A stretch of DNA of 64,000 nt, from NCBI GenBank assembly GCA_951804945.1, contig OX638149.1, positions 111,848,001 through 111,912,000 on the forward strand, in the 5' to 3' direction. The notes beneath the pieces were generated by a model, which did not search any database, was not told the DNA's origin, and saw nothing but the letters and a program-made list of their open reading frames with translations. Below are positions 3,052 to 64,000 of the stretch, in pieces. A program made the translations under genes and the position numbers. Origin of the DNA: Podarcis cretensis. Taxonomy: Eukaryota. How positions within the stretch are numbered: position 1 is the stretch's first letter; each line of letters starts with the position of its first letter.

Positions 3052-4754
3052 TGTACGTTAAACACAGAGGGAAAGTGAGGAAGCAGTGCCCATACTCCCC
3101 CTCTCCAGTTCTCTGTTGACACCTAAACTGGAATTCCGACACCATCCATTCTCTGCATTTGTTCATCAACATTTTTAGCAGTTCAGGATGACTAATCCCA
3201 TCTGTAGCTGTGGCTTAGCATTCTCAGGTGACACAGCAAAAGGACCACCGGATAGGATTCAGCAAATGCCTCTCCTTAAGCAGGAGCTCTTAAATGAAAT
3301 GCCTGCCGGCCAGTCCAGGAAAGGCAGGGAAGGCTTTGTTCCTGTTTGCAAACTTTTAACGTCTCTCTCATGCAGCTTGCTACACACACTTGACCCATCC
3401 CCCAACTGCAATATCAAAGTGGACTCTTTAATCCATTCTGCACAGGGCTGGTTTTCTCGTTTGCACATCAAAGGTATATTTGTTGTGCGGCCTGCACATT
3501 TTCTTCACAAGAGCAAAGTACTATATTATGTGTCTTTTTAAAAAATGGCAGTGCTTCCCCTTCCCCCAGCATTCTTTGCAATTGCGCTTGCAATATACAC
3601 CTACAGTTTTGTGGTATCATTAGTTACTTAGCAGCAGTCCATAGTTTCTTCTTCAAATCACTTTCGTGTCATGCTATTTTTTTAGTATTCTTTTAAGGTG
3701 GGTGTTTTTTTCCTTAGGTAGTTTTTAGTTGTTTGGGATAGGGATGCACACTTTGCAGTATTGTGATTTGTGGCAGGCTGTTTGTTTGCTTTTTTGCATT
3801 TTTCAGTGGAAAACAGCACAACTATCTTATTGTCACTGAAAGGTCTCTTATAGGAGTTGCTCATCTCCAAGACTAAAATGCAGTCAGTGCATGCTTTTGA
3901 ATGGTCCTGTGGAAACACCCCTGGCTGCCCCCCCCCCCAGCAACTGGAGTCCAGCACCTTCAACAAAGGCCCAGCAGGCAGAAACCTAGCAAGTGCGACT
4001 TTTATCTAGCATGAGTTATTCGAGGGTGTGAAAAGTGTGCAGTTCCTGAATTTCCACATCATTGAAATCACCTTGTTGGAAACAGAGTCACACCAGCTGA
4101 ATTCCTGCCTGCAACACGTCAGACAAATAAAACGGGCAGCCAACTAACCACTCCCTGAAATTTAAAAGGTCACACTGTGTGTCGAAATGGGGTGTGGGTG
4201 GGGAGAATAGCCAGGGCCAGAGTTGACCCCTATATGTGAGAGGAACACGGCAAGTATGTGGTAAAATCCTGTTTTTTAAAAAATATCAAAAAAAAACAAA
4301 ACAGAAAAACACCCCAACACCCAGCAGATATGGGAGGCTGCACAGTTAGGCAATTTCAAACCCTTAATGGTTTTATGGGAAGCAGGGCTCTTTAGACACT
4401 AAGTTACTTACCTACTACATTTGGAAGTACTCCTGCTTCTTCTGCAGAGTGGCACCCTTGATATCTGCTCCAGGGTCCTGCCTGGACATTGAGACTGCAG
4501 ATGTGCTGCTCTCACAGGCAACATCTCTTCATCCTGTGGCTGCAAAGGGGGAAATAAGAATCTGATGCACACCATACAAAGTGTACATTCTCTAAGCCCC
4601 ATTCCACTGTTCCCCAAAAGAACTTTTAAGCTACCAAAGGGATTGCATCTTCATCATTTAACAATTCGCGGTGAGGAATAAATTGCCCCTCTCAATTCAA
4701 GGGATTTTGGGTGAAGGGTACAGAACTAAGCTTGGTTCACCCACACTCCTCCTC

Positions 4755-45840: not shown

Positions 45841-46956
45841 GTATGTAGAATCTTTCCAAAATCCAGTGGACGAAAACTGAGATTACCATTTAGAAAACAA
45901 ATAACAAAATGTCCGCTTACAGTTATCTGCTTCTGTTTGGCTGCCTGTTATGTTCTCTGCATCCACAACCATTATTTTACTCTTCTGGTAGTTATACACC
46001 ATTATGTTATGGCCATTGACTTTTGTTCCCACAGCCATTCTAAATCTAGGAGGGAAGAAGCGCTTGTTTTACCAATTTTAGTAAATGTAAATACAGTGAT
46101 AATACACAAATTATGATTGACAAACATGGTGCAACAGGATACTCCTGTGGGCCAGAGCCACTGAGCTGCTAAGTCTCTGCTGAGCAAAGTTGAGCAGTGT
46201 TGAGTCACATTGATTTCAGCAACAGAGTTACATTACAATCATATGCATGCCTACTCTCAAGTAAGCCCCACTTTGTTCAGTAGGTAAATATGCATAAGGT
46301 TGCAACCTTAAGGACAGACAAGTGTCAAAGACTTAACCCCCTCATTTCTACCAAGGAGATTTCCTAGCAATGCTCTCTAGGTTAAATATCATATTGATAG
46401 CTAGGTGCCCAGTTTCTGGGCAATTTGATATTTGTATCTAGGAATCTGAGGGTAGCATCTAAGAGTTTCAAATATTTTTCAGCTTCTTCTTAGGCACTGC
46501 CAATTGTTTAGACAGCTAAAGCTTTGTCCTGGTGATATTGAGAGCTGAGGAAGTAAAGGAGGATTTTAATTGGCTCAGTTGAAATATCACATCAAACCAT
46601 GGTTTCTGCTATGCATAGTTAGGTACCCACACCATAGTTTAAGCTTCCAGACACACAACAGGGAATTAGTGGTTTAGAGTGCTTTCATTTTCCACATATT
46701 CACTCCCATCTCCAAGGTACAGCGGCTTCTTGAGACTGCAGTGACCCTATCTGGGATTTGTCTGCGGCTTGTGGATTCAGATATAACAGCAACCCACTAA
46801 ACCCAAACTGTGGTTTGCAAACCAGCATACAGCTTTGGTTTGATATCCTGGTTTGGTGAAGGTTAAACTGGGCTCAGAATGCCATCACCTTAATGAATCA
46901 TATCACGAAACATGCCTTGTAGGGGAAAAAATCTGTACCACATAATTATGAGTTGA

Positions 46957-47259
<303 letters not shown>

Positions 47260-53882: not shown

Positions 53883-54422
<540 letters not shown>

Positions 54423-57400
54423 TGAAGTTCCCATTTGAAAACATGGCATTTTAGTGTTTTACCACCAGTGTGAACAAGTGATATACCTTGATATTTCATG
54501 TTTCCCAATGCAAAGGTAGAAGACAGTGATTTTTATTAACACGGTTGTTCGTTATGGCAGTTGAAATACTCTAACTCCTTCTTTGAAGATTACCATTAAC
54601 TTCATATGTTTAATATTCCCCACTTTTTTATTGTATCAAACCTATATAATAAATGAGAATCAGTGATAGTTTTGTAGCCTTGTAATTAAATTGCCCACAG
54701 TTAATCATCTAATTTATCTAACATGACCTCTACCTCACTGAGTTCTTGGTGTCAACTTGACCTGCCCTAGAATTCTAAGCTGAAAGAAGACAGGATATTT
54801 AGTACAAATATCTATGCTTTGGGAAAAACCATTTTTGGATATACGGTATACACAATAATTTGTTAAGTTAGCTTTAGCCTCCCTCAAACTGTGAACAACA
54901 CACACTGGATGCTAGAATGTGTTGGGGAATTTCCCCACCTACAGTAAATGCCTGAGATGTAGACATTTTGGGTTAGGAGGATAACCCCCCAGCCACCCAT
55001 TCCCTCAATATAGATTTTCTAGCACTTTCCTCAATAATATTTGGGATTGAGCAATGGCAGGTGGAATTCTGGGTGGCATGGACTAGTCTCATATTTTATT
55101 TTAGTTTTGAAAAAAACTAGGTTAGCCTTCAGCAACATGGCATCCTCCACATGTTTTGGTGAAACTTCATCTAGAGAATTATTTTGGGAATTGTGCTCAT
55201 TGTCTGCCTGGCTGTTATATTTGGAACTGGGGATATCCCCTCTGCACAAAGATAAAATTAGTGGCCCAAGGTTGCAGAGGGAAGGGAGGAATTTTTTCAC
55301 ATGTGATATGCTTCTTGCATTACATTCTTGGAGTTGTTGCTTTTTAAGCACTTCTGTGTTTAGGGTTGTCTGGTCCCCGGCAGCACAAAACCTTGAAATG
55401 TTAGACAGGGCATTGTGGGGAACTCAAACCATTATTTTGCTAAAATATTTTACTATTCATACACAATGTCAGGACACTCAGGACAGATTACAGCGAACTC
55501 TAAGCTACAACGGTGCCGCAGTCTGAGCCAACTACCCATTATGTGGGACTTCCATTGTTATAATTCCATTATTCCCCATTTCCCCCCTTTCTTATAAAAT
55601 AGCCATAGCCTGGCCCAGGCAAATCTGGGCTAAGGCGCTGAGGGGGTGATGTTTGAGACTTTGCTCTCACACCACAAACCCTATCCTAATAATAAGAGCA
55701 TAGCTGCTAGTAGCCACAGAGGGGGGAAATTGTGGTCATCACAACTGTACCTAATAATAGGGGAATAATTTCCTGTGCCAGCACAATCTGCTCAAGCTGC
55801 ATGGAATTTGTACGCTTGCATACCTCAAAACCCTTTAGCTGCCACCTACTTTCAGACAATTAACACCCAGGGCAAAAACCTGGAACCCTATCTGTTGTAT
55901 GCTTTCCGTATGTGGCCCAATGTAGCCTGGTTTGATTGGTGGAGGAAGACGGTGAGTTTGACTGGTGAATAGGTCTGCCTTAGGAAAAGCTGGTTGGGAA
56001 AGAAGATGGCCGCCCCCCCCCCCCCATTCTGTGACCTTGTTCACACAAAATGATAAAGTATAGTTATTGGAATTGAGCAGCTCAATACACAATCTAGTGC
56101 ACATTGCTCAATCACTCCCACTTTGTTTCTTCCCTAAAGCTCTGGCTTGTCATTACATTTGAACTGGGATTGTGCTTGTTGCTCCATAGTTAGCTATGAT
56201 CAGCAAGCTAACAACAAACCATGGCTTCATTTGGGCTTGTTAGGAAGAAACAGCCCACAATCATAGTCCATTCATAATGACAAGCCAAGGCTTCATGGCT
56301 TGCTGGGAGCAATCAGGAACAATCAAGCAGTGTGGCACCAGCACAAAGTTTTATCTAAATAAGCTGTTGTCCATGGTTTATTGGACTTCAGACTTATGAA
56401 TAACAAAAAGAAGTGTTGCTTTCCACAGTGTCATTTAAGGTGATTTTTTAAAAAATTGAATTCTAGGCATCCGGAGGAGTTATAATGTATTTGTTCAGAT
56501 TAAGAAATTTTAGAAGACATTTATTTATTAACTTTGGTAAAACTATTTCATAGTTTTGTTAAATGAAAACAGGAGGGTTCCATTCCAAAGGTACTTGTGA
56601 ATGTTCCAGCCTTGTGTGTGACCTTGAAACTAATTTCAGGTTTGTGATTTGAAAATCCAGTCCAGCGAGTCAGTGCAGCTTCTGCAGGAATCTCCTCTGT
56701 TTTAGGATCCAGCTTCTAATTTACCTCTGTACATTGCAATCAAATTCTAGCAACATTTAACAGTGCATGATTTTGAGGGACATTTTTATTAAGGCAATGA
56801 ATACACCTTTTCCCTGTGTTATTTTAGATGACGTGCAATTAGTACCTGTAAGCCAAGTCATACGTAATAATAATCCAAAATCAAAAGCAGAGATACTGTT
56901 TTATAAACTTCATGTCCTACCATTCTTACTTCTCGCAGGATTAAAATCAAGCTGGATCATTCAGGAATGCAGCTCTGGTGCTTTTTGTTTTTACCAAGCA
57001 GAGCAACGAGCAGCATCAATTTTACACAGGTTACTTAAGCAAGTTGTTCTACCTCTATATATGATACCTTTTAACTGGATATGGATTGGCTTGCATGCTA
57101 CTCAGCCATCTTCCTCCTCCCCTCCCATCCATTGCAATATTAGAAAGCTACACGGCTGCTCTCTGCCGAGTCAGGTGACTCGCATCACAGCATGGGCAGG
57201 CAGGATTGGCAAGTCCAACATTTGTAGGCGTTCAGACTCCAGTTAGGCCGCACTCTTTATTATAATGCAATTTTATAGCAAGCGGAAGAAGAAATGCATG
57301 TAATTTGTTCAACCTGAAAAGCATTTGTTTCACTAGGTGTAACTGGGAGACGAAGTACGTTGGGCAAGCAAAGGGATTAATTGCTTAATCCAAGGGTGGA

Positions 57401-59446
57401 GAACCTTTTCATCCTGCAGGTCACATTATCTCAAAGGAAACTTGCTGGAAGACAGAGGCCACTGGTGGGTGGGCATTTCTGCACAGCCTAGGAGAAGACC
57501 AAGGGCCCAAAAGGAAATCCTAGAGGGCTGCATTTGCACCCGGGTCTGAGGTTCCCCACCCCTGTCTTAATCAAGCCTAGGGGTATTTTTATACTACTGC
57601 ACTTACAATTAATGTTGTTGGGTGGTGTGCATGATTTCTGAGTTTATAACGAAAATAACTAGCTTTATTTCGCAAGCTAAAATGCCTGTGTGACCTTATA
57701 GCCTGCCATTAAGCTGTACAACGAATACAAACAGATAACACTTCAGCAACTTTTCAAAACTTTGTCATGCAAAACAAAATGCGGGGGAAATTAGACTAGC
57801 AAAACACTACCGCTGCAGGTTAAACAACACCCACCCTGCAGCTGCAAGCACAAAAATAAAATACCCTCTACCAGGTGCTATTTTCATCTGGAGGGAAGTC
57901 TGTTCAGAAATAATAGTTTCAGAAAAGGGGCAATTTTTTTAAAAAAGTTTTTTTAAAAAGTGAAAGCGGAAAACTTCACCATAGTCCCGATATTGATCCG
58001 TCCTATGTCTGCCATTTTAATTATTTTTAATGATTTACACAACGCCAAACTACACATAATATATAGTTTGGCCCTTTAAACATATGTCCCAGTCTTGGGA
58101 ATACAGTAATAAGCACTGGGGAAAATGGGTGGACTACTTTGCAGCTATGTAAACAGAACCTGAAAAGCATGCAAGGGGGTGCCACAGGCATTGCCCCCCG
58201 GAAGTGTTTTTCCTTCCCCTGTGTTTATTTACTACAGTGAAGCAACATGCATAAGTGTGTCGCTGATTGCTGTTGCCTGATATTGGTGTCTGTGCCACTT
58301 GTATGCGAAAAGGTTTGCTGCAAATTAAGAAATCACAACTTCCCTCAATTTAAGGGGATTTTTTTTTCAGTAGGTATATGATAAGCCCAAATCATTTAAA
58401 ATCAATTTGTATGTGTTTGTCTTCTCCTGCCATTCCTTTAATAGCTCCTTCCACCTCTTTCATTTAATTTCCATAGCATGGCAGGTTTCGAAAATCAGTT
58501 TTAATTAAAATAAGATATTGAGATCATTTGCAGATGCTCTGCTTAGTAGTTTTCCATTCCCCCACCCAAAAAATGCTTACATTTCAAAGGAGCATGCAAG
58601 TTATGTAAATAGATGCAAATGTGGGGTTCATGCGCAGTTGTTATTGTTTAAAACACTCTTATTAAGAGCATAATAAAATAGTCTTGGTTTTTTTGTTGCA
58701 TCCCAAAATAATTCCACGTTGACCATACTTATTTCTTATTTTAGTTTCAATTTTATAATTAAAAAAGCACTTCCCTTTAGCATGGTCAGATGAAAATGGA
58801 GACCAGATGCCTGTATCTTTAAGAATTGTGTAGAAGAGGGAATTTCAGCAGTGTGGCTTGCATGACAACCTTCTGAAATCCCCTCTTCTACCCAACTATG
58901 AAGGGGCCAGTATGGATTTGCCCACCCTACTTATTTTGTTATAGCATTATTACTGTATGAAACCATGATACAGCTACCAGCAAATCAGGTGTGTACACGA
59001 ATAACAGTACTGCCAAACCTCTTCGCATTTGTAAATCTTGTTTGGTATATTAAAGGCAGAAGGTATTCAGAACCAAAACCAATTTAGAATGTTTCTAGAT
59101 TGTGCTTATTTCTTCTGTTAGCAGCGTACCTTTTGATGCATCTAAGATGCCCCCCCCCCAAATACCCAGAATATTAAGGTTTGTACAATATCTGAACTCT
59201 AATAAATTAACCATCCTTTAAATTGTGGCATATTTTCCATAGCATATTGTTTTGGGGGAAGATCTTGCTTTATCATTATGTTTTTCCAAGGATGTTTATG
59301 GTTGACATTCTGTATTGCAAAGGTAGTAAGATGGGGCAGAAAAGTACTGTGCATGCTTAGTCACAAGTATATGCTGCTGAGTTCATCCTCCTGGGCTTCT
59401 TGCCCAGAAAATGGGCAAATGTACATAAAAGCAATGGGAACAACAG

Positions 59447-59734
59447 TGCTCACTGGAAGGACAGATTGTGAAGCTGAGGCTCCAGTACTTTGGCCACCTC
59501 ATGAGAAGAGAAGACTCCCTGGAGAAGACCCTGATGTTGGGAAAGATGGAGGGCACAAGGAGAAGGGGGCGACAGAGGACGAGATGGTTGGATAGTGTTT
59601 TCGAGGTTACCAGCATGAGTCTGACCAAGCTGCGGGGGGCAGTGGAGGACAGGAGTGCCTGGCGTTCTCTGGTCCATGGGGTCACGAAGAGTCGGACACG
59701 ACTAAACGACTAAACAACAACAACAACAACAACA
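59447..59734 (+). mobile_element. Bov-B (RTE) LINE 3' end
   Basis: LQYFGHLMRREDSLEKTLMLGKMEGTRRRGRQRTRWLD followed by a (CAA)n tail. Confidence 0.92.
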
Positions 59735-61517
59735 GCTCAACTCAACACTTGTGACCCTTTGGGCACCACCAACACAAAATAGTATATTTCCTTTCAAGAG
59801 GTGCTACTATGTGCCCTATTACACTCTCAATTCAAGTTCAGTCAATCAGACCCTTCTACCTAAAATCTGGAAGATGTCCCTTTTAGAAACTGGCAAATTA
59901 ACTGCGTGATATTCCCTGTGTATATTCATAATGCACATCCTCAAAAGACAAGTGACGTTGCAGTTCCTCTCTGTCACATTGCTACATAAGGGCTGGCTGG
60001 GCTTTTTTAGGAGGAAAGGTAGCAAATAAATAAATTAAATAAGGGATGATTTTATATAAACCATTATTTCTATATAGCCAAAGGTGCCACAATACAGAGC
60101 AACTCAGAAATGAAAACTCTTAATGACTTGCCTATAATTTTTGGCTCTGTTAGTATGTACTGAATGTATTTAACGCCTTATCACAAACTTTCCTTTTGAA
60201 GTACTGGAGATTCAAAATGGGCAGATTTAAAGAGAGTGCTTCCAGCATAACCAGTGTGCACTGTATAAATCTCTGAATGTGCCTCTCTTACTTTTAACAC
60301 CCACTCCCCCAATCCTGACCCCCGACAATCCCAGGCTTGCCTCATCATATGGGCAGACGGCATTCTCTGTTTTTAAGGATAAATGATATCTTTGAATAAG
60401 ACGAACAAATCTCGCAAACCTGGGGTGCTTTCTCTTTCTGAGTTGCTTGGGTGCTGCGCAGTGTCCACTTCAGGCTCGGTTAACTAATAAGATTGTTATT
60501 ATTATTACAGCCTGTTGCAAGAAACATGCCAATTTCTCACTGAGAAGAAACCTGAAAGGTTTAATTTACAATTCATGAAATGTAGACTTGTACCTCAACC
60601 AAGATGAATGTAAAGTGGCTGTTTGCGTTTCAGATAATGGTATCTTAGACTTTTGCCTGATCATTGTGTTTGCATGTGAAATGTCTAATATACTAATTTG
60701 ATGAATGAACTACACATAATTTCAAGGACTGAAAAAAGACTGAGATTCGTACTTGTTTATTCTTTGGACTTAGTGCTGCTCACAAGTTACTAAACAATTT
60801 TTTTCTTCCAAACAAAAAACAAACAAAAAAAAAACAACCTAAAGATTTCTCTTTATTTTCTGAGTAGACTCATCATGATTTTGGTTTGCTTTTTTTGCTT
60901 TTGGCTCTGCTAATTCTGCAGCATTAATGCTAAAAAACACATACCCACCCCTGCAGTTTGGAATGATGCAAGCAAAATATTTTACAATTTCAAACTATTA
61001 AAAAAATAGGATGTTATGGTTCTATATACAGCTATTGACTAAGCGTGAATTGCATAGATTACATATGATAGGTGTCTATCATTCAGTCTATCGGTGGTTT
61101 ATAAGCACAGGAGCTCCATTTATGTAGAAGCTCTACATGTGCGTCGACATCAGAATTCATTGCAACATGATCTGCATGTGCGTTCCATGTACAGATGGAC
61201 TAAGCCCATCAATTGGAAGGAACGGGGCAGTCAGTGCATACCAAAAATCTATTTGTGCATCTGATGTATTAAATTATACACTGTACTTATATGCTACTGG
61301 ATTTCTTGGGATTTAGGTATGCATAGCTGCACTATGTAAGTACCTGAGCCTGAACATCTTTACCTGGAAGCCATTCCCTTTGATTTTGGTTGAACTTCAT
61401 TTCTGAGCATATACTTTGTACCAATCTGTGAGAAGAATATAGTGTAATTTATGATTTGTGGCCATTTCTATAAAACAGTGCTTAGCCAAAGCCTTTTTCT
61501 AGTCTCCATTTAGGATA

Positions 61518-61880
61518 AAAGGTAAAGGTAAAGGTACCCCTGCCCGTACGGGCCAGTCTTGACAGACTCTGGGGTTGTGCGCCCATCTCACTTAAGAGGC
61601 CGGGGCCAGCGCTGTCCGGAGACACTTCCGGGTCACGTGGCCAGCGTGACATCGCTGCTCTGGCGAGCCAGAGCCGCACACGGAAACGCCGTTTACCTTC
61701 CCGCTGGTAAGCGGTCCCTATTTATCTACTTGCACCCGGAGGTGCTTTCGAACTGCTAGGTTGGCAGGCGCTGGGACCGAGCAGCGGGAGCGCACCCCGC
61801 CGCAGGGATTCGAACCGCCGACCTTTCGATCGGCAAGTCCTAGGCGCTGAGGCTTTAACTCACAGCGCCACCTGCGTCCC
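61518..61880 (-). mobile_element. Sauria SINE
   Basis: 13-bp TSD tccatttaggata; nearly identical to the copy at 23171. Confidence 0.92.
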
Positions 61881-64000
61881 TCCATTTAGGATAGAAGGCT
61901 GCATATCAAGGGATACTGTTGCAGTGAATTTCCTGCAACTGTTTTTTCTCTATTTTGCGGCAAAGAGTTATGATTTATATACATTTGCACTTTGTAAATG
62001 ATATTGTACATCAGTTGTTGCTAAGTACAAAATATATCCTTTGAAGCTGCACTCAAGAGTGTGCTGGATTTTCCCAACATTGATCCCTCACCTCCGGCTT
62101 GATAAAAGACCACAATATGCATTTTGCTACAAGGTGGCTAAGATCGTACTATCAGGAAACTGCTTACTGGTCAGTATTAGTAAGATTATTATTGATAAAT
62201 GATTAATCCCAGGTTTTATTGTTCTGAGATAAACAGGTATGTTGGAAGTACTGTACTGAGATAGCCTATTCCAATTTTGGATGGTGTGGTTACTATTTTT
62301 ATATTATCAGAAACTTCCTTTTGTCATTGAACAAGAGTGCAATGCTTGCAGTCCCCTTATACTATACTTGTGTGAATATTATGTTGTTTTATATGGTTCT
62401 ATACAGCTAGTGTACATGGGGATAGCATTCGTTCCCCATTGACCTTTATTTTGTTTATTGATATTAAAGTGCATTGAAAATTGAATGTGTGTTTCCTCTG
62501 GCAGTGTAAAACTAACAACAGTTTTTGTTTCCTATAAAAACAAGGGACTCAGATGAACAAAAAGATTATCTTTAATCTAATTCTGTTGCCCCTCTCCCTG
62601 CAAGTACCATTACACAGCCTTTTTATAAAAACAAAACAGAGAGCAGATTATAAATTATATTCTGATGCAATCAATAGAACCTGTTCATACCTCCTAAAAA
62701 TCGATTTTTAAAACCCATGAAATGGCAAATAGTCTTCTGAAGCAAAGTAATTTTATTGATCCAGAAGTTAGTGAAACCACCAGAAAATAGACTAGAAAGG
62801 GCTGATTGGTAGAAACAGCTTGAGGATAATCTGAGGCTTTTTAAAAAAATAGTAAATTCAGAATGGTAACCAATTCTTTCTGCTGCTTAAATAAAATTCA
62901 AACTGGAACACCTCAAAACTGGTAAAGTACTTTCTTCATCAAACTAATATTTTAGCTGGTTAAGAGTTCGTGAAAAAGCTTGATTCTGATGAATAATGCC
63001 GACAGCTTTGTTTTGGAGTATTATGTAAAAAATGATCTTTTTATAATAGTACATTGACACCAGTATGCGTTATTCACCATCTGCTTACATCATTCCCCAC
63101 ATAAAGATAGTTACTTACCAATGCAGCCATTTACTGATGTTATACACTACCATGGTAATAACATTGTAGAATGCTACAGAATGCGATTATCAGCTCTACT
63201 TTTATTCACTATGGTACTCATATTTGTCTACTGCTGCCAATGCAGCACCCTGCTAGCTTTCCTTAATCACATCAGGAAACCAGTTGGAAGTTTAGATGAC
63301 GTCAACTTTTCATGATTGGCACAATCGCTTTCCCTCCAAAAATAGCATTTTTGAAAAATTGTGTTTTAAATGCTATCGTAAAAATACACACAATTATCTA
63401 AGTACTAAAGAGGACACATATGTGTACCATGCAAGAATAAAAAGTTGTTTTAAAAATGCACACTCAGCTGTGCAAGTGCATTGGCAAAAGAGAATGCGAA
63501 ATAATGGCTCCCGCTCTGGAATTAATACGCTGCTTTCCTTTCTGAAACCTCAGAAACTTAGAAGTACTTATACACTGATAATTTGTCTTTTCATGTCAAC
63601 AGGAAGTAAAGGGTTAAACATAGTTTGCATCATATGCATACTGTACCTGCATCTGACATGAAAATGCTTCCTTCAGTTTTTGCCGTAACTTGGGGAAAAT
63701 GCTGCAATTCATGGTGCTCTCTCTCTCTCTCTATCTTACCAATTAGTGTTACTTCAGAACTGTCAGTTCGGTATGTGGCTTAGTTTCTTAGCAAATTGGT
63801 TCAAAAAGGTGGTTCCTTCTATGAATATACCGAAACCCTTCTATCATGGGGGAACCCCCCCCCCACTTGATGTGGTTAATAATACTTATGGCCTCACATA
63901 CAGGAAAGCAAACTGGCCTCCACAGTTCTGCTCTTCATTTGAGAGCTCTTAATTACACAGAGAGCATTTTGGAATGCATTAAGTGCAACCCAGTCCTATA

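Follow-up and report, generated by a model that had tools for sequence, protein, structure and literature searches.

Stop-bearing cassette exons have been described in several mammalian sodium-channel genes. Kerr and co-workers reportedly found in 2008 an exon 17A in Nav1.2, a 17A/17B pair in Nav1.3 and an exon 16A in Nav1.7, and their conservation is said to extend to chicken. Published work is cited here from extracts, and what is said of it holds for those extracts. The title of the 2008 study (Kerr, Holmes and Wynick, in the reference list of PMC5235321) refers to predicted two-domain truncated proteins of Nav1.2, Nav1.3 and Nav1.7. For human SCN2A, the list of Felker et al. (PMC9882217) has a single poison exon, 17A, for the intron that follows c.3399; it measures 84 nt (chr2:165357774-165357857) and belongs to the class NMD_in. 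The same source reports c.3399+3359C>A, a variant of uncertain significance located 170 nt past the 3' end of 17A (173 by its table).

A related exon is mouse Scn9a E17a, which bears a TAA and is lost in the NOVA double knockout (Eom et al. 2013, PMC3552424). The isoform containing E17a is raised by emetine (about 75%) and by Upf1 siRNA (PMC3552424). A NOVA cluster is placed upstream of E17a in the same paper, with its direction worded inconsistently. In SCN8A, exon 18N is the embryonic form and is replaced under RBFOX control, and a downstream UGCAUG promotes the inclusion of 18A; the extract of this 2026 review (PMC13011093) does not mention 17A.

Two surveys of splicing coupled to nonsense-mediated decay (NMD) speak against frequent use of 17A. 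The extract of Lim 2020 (PMC7347940) lists six SCN2A NMD events, 17A not among them, as well as an 82-nt SCN9A inclusion event without placing its intron, and no Scn2a entry was found in the searched supplement rows of a 2026 brain AS-NMD catalogue (PMC13078869). Since 17A is missing from both, its inclusion may be low or limited to certain tissues. Nothing on 17A was found in the extracts of Liang 2021 (PMC8383430), PMC4752963, PMC5008151 and bioRxiv 2025.08.16.670673, and a search of the open-licence literature returned no papers on the regulation of SCN2A 17A.

Here we analyse this intron in 64,000 nt of DNA from Podarcis cretensis (the window). Mammals are already known to have this element, and the main result is its confirmation and precise annotation in this lizard. 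Judged from the sequence, positions 56939-57029 in all probability form a stop-bearing cassette that keeps both splice sites in three sister genes, is the orthologue of 17A and would trigger NMD on inclusion, and two neighbouring candidates are probably not cassettes. The features are listed in Table 1.

Table 1. Features in and around intron 16 of the SCN2A-type gene; positions refer to the window, and paired identities to the two paralogues.
Feature	Positions	Strand	Remarks
Coding exon 16, SCN2A-type sodium-channel gene	53883..54362	+	480 nt; domain II-III loop; ends phase 0
Intron 16	54363..64000, on to 64048 past the window	+	9686 nt
Upstream TGCATG	56764..56769	+	Not conserved
20-nt microexon candidate	56828..56847	+	TAG at 56840-56842; probably a chance pseudo-exon
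3' splice site of the 91-nt exon, pyrimidine tract and CAG	56910..56938	+	Identity 86%, 83%
Poison cassette exon, likely 17A orthologue	56939..57029	+	91 nt; paralogous exons 85, 86 nt; 68%, 73% identical
In-frame TAA, codon 2 of the 91-nt exon	56942..56944	+	Same site in 3/3 paralogues
5' splice site of the 91-nt exon, CAG/GTTAC	57030..57041	+	Weak but conserved; 92%, 83%
Conserved block 3' of the exon, probable splicing enhancer	57083..57221	+	TGCATG at 57092, GCATG at 57190, four YCAY
31-nt candidate	57144..57174	+	Within the conserved downstream block, after a pyrimidine tract; exon use doubtful
Third RBFOX motif, TGCATG	57295..57300	+	Outside the alignable block; flanks 38%, 31%
Second ancient intronic block, YCAY-rich	63082..63220 (weaker 63477-63540)	+	May be a distal NOVA element or another exon

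The host gene and its cluster

Exon 16 has its best PDB match in human Nav1.2 (305 bits, vs 277 for Nav1.1 and 237 for Nav1.3). The 16 coding exons join into 3411 nt, or 1137 codons, of stop-free frame. Exon 16 closes codon 1137 in phase 0, the phase that an earlier sequence-only reading had given for the upstream exon. The length of intron 16 follows from the start of coding exon 17 at 64049, 49 nt outside the window in the sequence that adjoins it. Three paralogues are found on the same contig, one upstream and two downstream, all on the opposite strand. Their order, with the present gene included, is that of SCN3A, SCN2A, SCN1A, SCN9A on human chromosome 2. The third gene in this order is best matched by Nav1.1, and the names SCN3A-type and SCN9A-type are taken from gene order, the best PDB hits being equivocal: exon 16 of the SCN9A-type gene has Nav1.2 as its best hit, and those of the SCN3A-type gene are split. 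A tree of seven paralogues, built to date the exon and to test for a loss in SCN1A, gave no resolution at any of its four inner branches.

Several other characteristics of these genes were recorded. Exon 16 of the SCN9A-type gene (L021:9586-9963) has 378 nt, compared with 480 in the SCN2A-type gene, a difference that stays in frame and removes about 34 residues from the II-III loop. In coding exon 19, beyond the window (G000:C1:111915920-111916105), the SCN2A-type and SCN3A-type (L015) genes share 98.9% identity over 186 nt, compared with 75-89% in their remaining exons; this near-identity likely reflects recent gene conversion. Coding exons 2 and 3 are joined across an AT-AC intron (26817/26818 and 30478/30479, donor ATATCCTT), which we take to be the minor-spliceosome intron of the sodium-channel gene family. 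Dispersed repeats at 59445-59722 and 61510-61881 of intron 16 have many copies in paralogous regions and do not overlap the poison-exon region. The intron after coding exon 12 (45841-47008) carries a TGCATG at 46244; it corresponds to the intron that houses the other poison exon listed for human SCN2A, of 135 nt (Felker et al., PMC9882217).

A stop-bearing cassette kept in three sister genes

The comparison of intron 16 with its paralogous counterparts carries the identification. By blastn, positions 56874-57221 match the SCN3A-type intron (74% over 358 nt, E 6e-52) and positions 56915-57039 match the SCN9A-type intron (78% over 125 nt, E 1e-22), values that place the sequence similarity of the 91-nt exon above chance. 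As a control, the SCN3A-type gene was compared over 35.6 kb from intron 16 onwards: 56874-57221 is the sole same-strand, collinear, single-copy match in non-coding intronic sequence, and all others are coding exons or dispersed repeats. The SCN1A-type and SCN8A-type introns, which are short (about 640 and 1060 nt), gave no blastn match to intron 16. A three-block profile found nothing under E 0.9 in SCN1A-, SCN8A- and SCN4A-type stretches and in two C12 channel genes, one intron being spanned partly. A genome search with 56650-57350, in which very common words are skipped, returned the own locus and one paralogue only, in agreement with the view that the region holds no transposable element.

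The aligned SCN2A-, SCN3A- and SCN9A-type genes have in common the CAG/GTTAC donor, the acceptor and the TAA in codon 2. The TAA is kept although codon 1 varies among the three (GAT, GGG, GAC). The exon has a 5-nt insertion relative to both paralogues. Immediately 5' of the acceptor segment, identity over 56 nt is 48% and 45%. The donor obtains a matrix score of 3.7, with the 10th percentile of true donors at 3.4, and the strength of the two splice sites alone is ordinary, 20 AG-GT pairs as strong being present in intron 16, this one counted. These scores come from small home-made position matrices, trained on 45 donor and 34 acceptor sites of these genes, and differ in kind from MaxEntScan values. 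The donor region, 57020-57035 (CAG/GT), also scores as an acceptor, with 6.5 and 7.4 in the paralogues and 0.5 here, and resembles an AG/GT recursive or dual site.

Among the runs listed for 56500-57450, none is recorded as RNA. Two presumed-RNA runs (4 of 23 listed runs were examined) provided four short contigs with no spliced joints; one of them crosses the 56939 acceptor unspliced, and they may represent DNA or pre-mRNA. The close relatives, at about 98% identity, are too near for a test of conservation.

Conservation of this kind might also have another origin. The block could be kept as a DNA enhancer or for an RNA structure, or could owe its similarity to gene conversion, and be left unspliced in P. 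cretensis. The near-identity of exon 19 indicates that conversion occurs in the cluster, but an identity of 74-78% to two different paralogues is not that of a recent event. Furthermore, identity peaks at both splice sites, the TAA persists beside a changing first codon, and folding z-scores lie between -0.2 and +0.8. We therefore consider this explanation quite improbable.

The 91-nt segment is best understood as an exon. Its position, size, stop and paralogue pattern make it the very probable orthologue of 17A, in agreement with human SCN2A 17A and with the TAA of mouse Scn9a E17a. The sequence-only reading had proposed a counterpart to the 17A poison exon of rodents, acting as an NMD-type switch, and this is judged right. 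It had left the choice of cassette and donor open among three candidates; the 91-nt exon with its donor after 57029, the one kept in the paralogues, is the one retained.

The two neighbouring candidates

The cluster had been proposed to hold three cassettes, and every string on which the proposal was based is present: the 20-nt candidate at 56828-56847, GAT TAA at 56939, CAG/GTTACT at 57029, CAG/GTGACT at 57174 and the 31-nt candidate at 57144-57174. Two of the three find little favour in the comparison, and as separate cassettes they are probably not real.

The 20-nt candidate, separated from the 91-nt exon by a gap of 91 nt (56848-56938), is probably a chance pseudo-exon. Its acceptor is good, ranking 7th of 570, but its identity to the two paralogues is 29% and 39%, and the AG is absent in both. 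Across roughly 45 kb of introns of this gene, the sense strand has 28 AG-GT pairs of at least this strength and the antisense strand 30; intron 16 holds four, this one counted. The conserved, above-chance splice sites of a neural microexon are not seen in it when the paralogues are compared.

The AG of the 31-nt candidate aligns in all three paralogues and its GT in two, the third having GC. Here the donor is good (7.5, rank 8 of 486) and the acceptor weak (3.0, rank 59 of 570). In the paralogues the acceptor does not rise above 0 in either, and the donor falls to 2.3 in the SCN3A-type gene. Thirteen AG-GT pairs as strong, itself counted, are present within intron 16. Conservation extends past it on both sides (about 60 nt 5' and 47 nt 3'), with no peak at its ends.

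In a true cluster, either the 31-nt segment would be a second, 17B-like cassette and account for the conserved sequence downstream, or the 20-nt segment would be a cassette specific to SCN2A. The former is preceded by a pyrimidine tract and lies entirely inside the conserved block; Scn3a reportedly carries a 17A/17B pair, which is not seen here. In three close relatives the stop of the latter is retained as TAA. This retention says little, because those relatives are about 98% identical. The splice scores of the 31-nt candidate collapse in the paralogues, so a second cassette, the 20-nt candidate included, is rated unlikely. The human list likewise gives a single poison exon in the SCN2A intron after c.3399 (PMC9882217).

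The downstream block and its RBFOX and NOVA motifs

Downstream of the 91-nt exon, the block at 57083-57221 shows 75% and 62% identity to the paralogues, which drops to 25% and 14% just beyond it. Its two (U)GCAUG motifs are aligned in all three paralogues, at +64/+161, +60/+156 and +58/+155 from the donor, the proximal downstream arrangement of RBFOX-activated exons. Outside the alignable part, a further motif is placed at a comparable distance in each gene (GCATG at +267, +253 and +223, with TGCATG in both paralogues). TGCATG was confirmed at 56764, 57092 and 57295, as noted earlier, but the idea that these motifs bracket the region is not supported: in both paralogues neither TGCATG nor GCATG occurs within 400 nt 5' of the donor, so that the motif at 56764 has no counterpart, and only the downstream motifs are kept. 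The count of TGCATG is by itself not exceptional; three per 540 nt are reached at 0.9% of window positions, in three separate clusters on the plus strand and two on the minus strand. A 36-nt segment of the block, 57088-57123, finds another locus with 5 mismatches in DNA runs of two relatives, either by chance or as an extra copy of the motif block.

Two arrangements were considered and rejected. For a hairpin that would bring the two RBFOX motifs together, nine folds gave z-scores of -0.2 to +0.8, and other windows of intron 16 reach -4.3. A NOVA (YCAY) cluster directly 3' of the exon is not enriched, 19%, 42% and 21% of windows being equally dense.

A second ancient block is found at 63082-63220. 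Its only other match in the genome is in the SCN9A-type intron (L036 / G000:C1:112260649-112260778; 78% over 95 nt, E 2e-13), and it is absent from the SCN3A-type intron. With 8 YCAY per 150 nt, the SCN9A-type partner block is the top window of its intron, and 63082-63220, with 7, is joint second. The block also holds a donor-like ATG/GTAATA, without a good acceptor here.

Proposed function and significance

Most transcripts would skip the 91-nt exon, because its donor is weak. Inclusion would add one residue after codon 1137, followed by the stop. The TAA lies 85 nt from the 3' end of the exon, beyond the 50-55 nt that the NMD rule demands, and 10 coding exons follow. Because the stop precedes 10 downstream junctions, an SCN2A-type message with the exon would be expected to undergo NMD, by the exon-junction rule and the example of the mouse paralogue. 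Any product escaping decay would be a two-domain channel.

Such a channel could be the very purpose of the exon, as a stable dominant-negative or scaffold protein. The predicted truncated proteins in the title of Kerr 2008 and the position of the stop after domain II in all three paralogues are compatible with this role. The 10 junctions downstream of the stop, the rise of the mouse Scn9a isoform with emetine and Upf1 knock-down (PMC3552424), and an exon length free of frame (91, 85 and 86 nt) argue against it, and we hold it very improbable. Decay of the message is the preferred outcome.

As the RBFOX motifs are conserved downstream only, neuronal inclusion is predicted. The conserved (T)GCATG motifs may bind RBFOX and, together with NOVA, raise inclusion in neurons, to judge from motif position and the NOVA result; a role of RBFOX in raising inclusion is about evenly poised. 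Were both factors to act in this way, the exon would be a neuronal brake on channel dosage, not a non-neural off-switch.

We tentatively extend this to the family, as a possibility that we do not yet favour. The exon and its control module might predate the SCN2A/3A/9A tandem duplications and form a shared neuronal brake, composed of the proximal block, which spans +54 to +192 and keeps its pair of RBFOX motifs in all three genes, and the distal YCAY block (63082-63220, in two genes); the proximal block might be the enhancer struck by c.3399+3359C>A.

What the comparison adds is that three paralogues in one genome delimit the functional unit: it comprises the exon, its weak donor and, downstream, a block of 140 nt that holds RBFOX motifs. 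The search for the SCN2A 17A enhancer is thereby narrowed to the paralogue-defined downstream block, which may aid in reading the human variant c.3399+3359C>A. The downstream block and the distal YCAY block are candidate control elements of SCN2A 17A and constitute the part worth following. If the proposal is true, antisense molecules directed at the proximal block would offer a ready route to higher SCN2A output in haploinsufficiency.

Comparison with known systems

The 91-nt exon resembles human SCN2A 17A in the type of gene and in the intron that it occupies, which in both cases follows coding exon 16 (at c.3399 in human and at nt 3411 in the lizard). It has the traits of the 17A family, as an AG/GT cassette of roughly 84 nt with an in-frame TAA in the intron of the II-III loop. 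Human 17A starts 3103 nt into an intron of 10471 nt (30%), and the lizard exon 2577 nt into 9686 (27%). The sizes are 84 nt in human and 91 nt (3n+1) here, the latter with the 5-nt insertion relative to its own paralogues; this likeness is one of position and size. By distance alone, c.3399+3359C>A falls in the +54 to +192 span of the proximal block.

Mouse Scn9a E17a, likewise a cryptic exon with a TAA, is flanked by the corresponding pair of coding exons, and the SCN9A-type gene here holds a 78% identical copy of the lizard exon. When the primers of Eom et al. were placed on this gene, the forward one fell in exon 16 with 3 mismatches and the reverse one loosely in exon 17 (5/20). NOVA dependence and NMD are established in mouse Scn9a only. 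Copies in the SCN3A- and SCN9A-type genes, named by gene order, and none in the scanned SCN1A- and SCN8A-type stretches are the distribution of the 17A family, and the three-gene set (SCN2A-, SCN3A- and SCN9A-type) matches the Nav1.2, Nav1.3 and Nav1.7 of the Kerr 2008 title.

SCN8A 18N and SCN1A 20N are likewise conserved stop-bearing exons that cut channel output via NMD. Both presumably sit in a later intron, in domain III. For 17A-type exons the prediction is that neuronal factors switch the poison exon on, and their inclusion seems to be driven by such factors, unlike that of SCN8A 18N.
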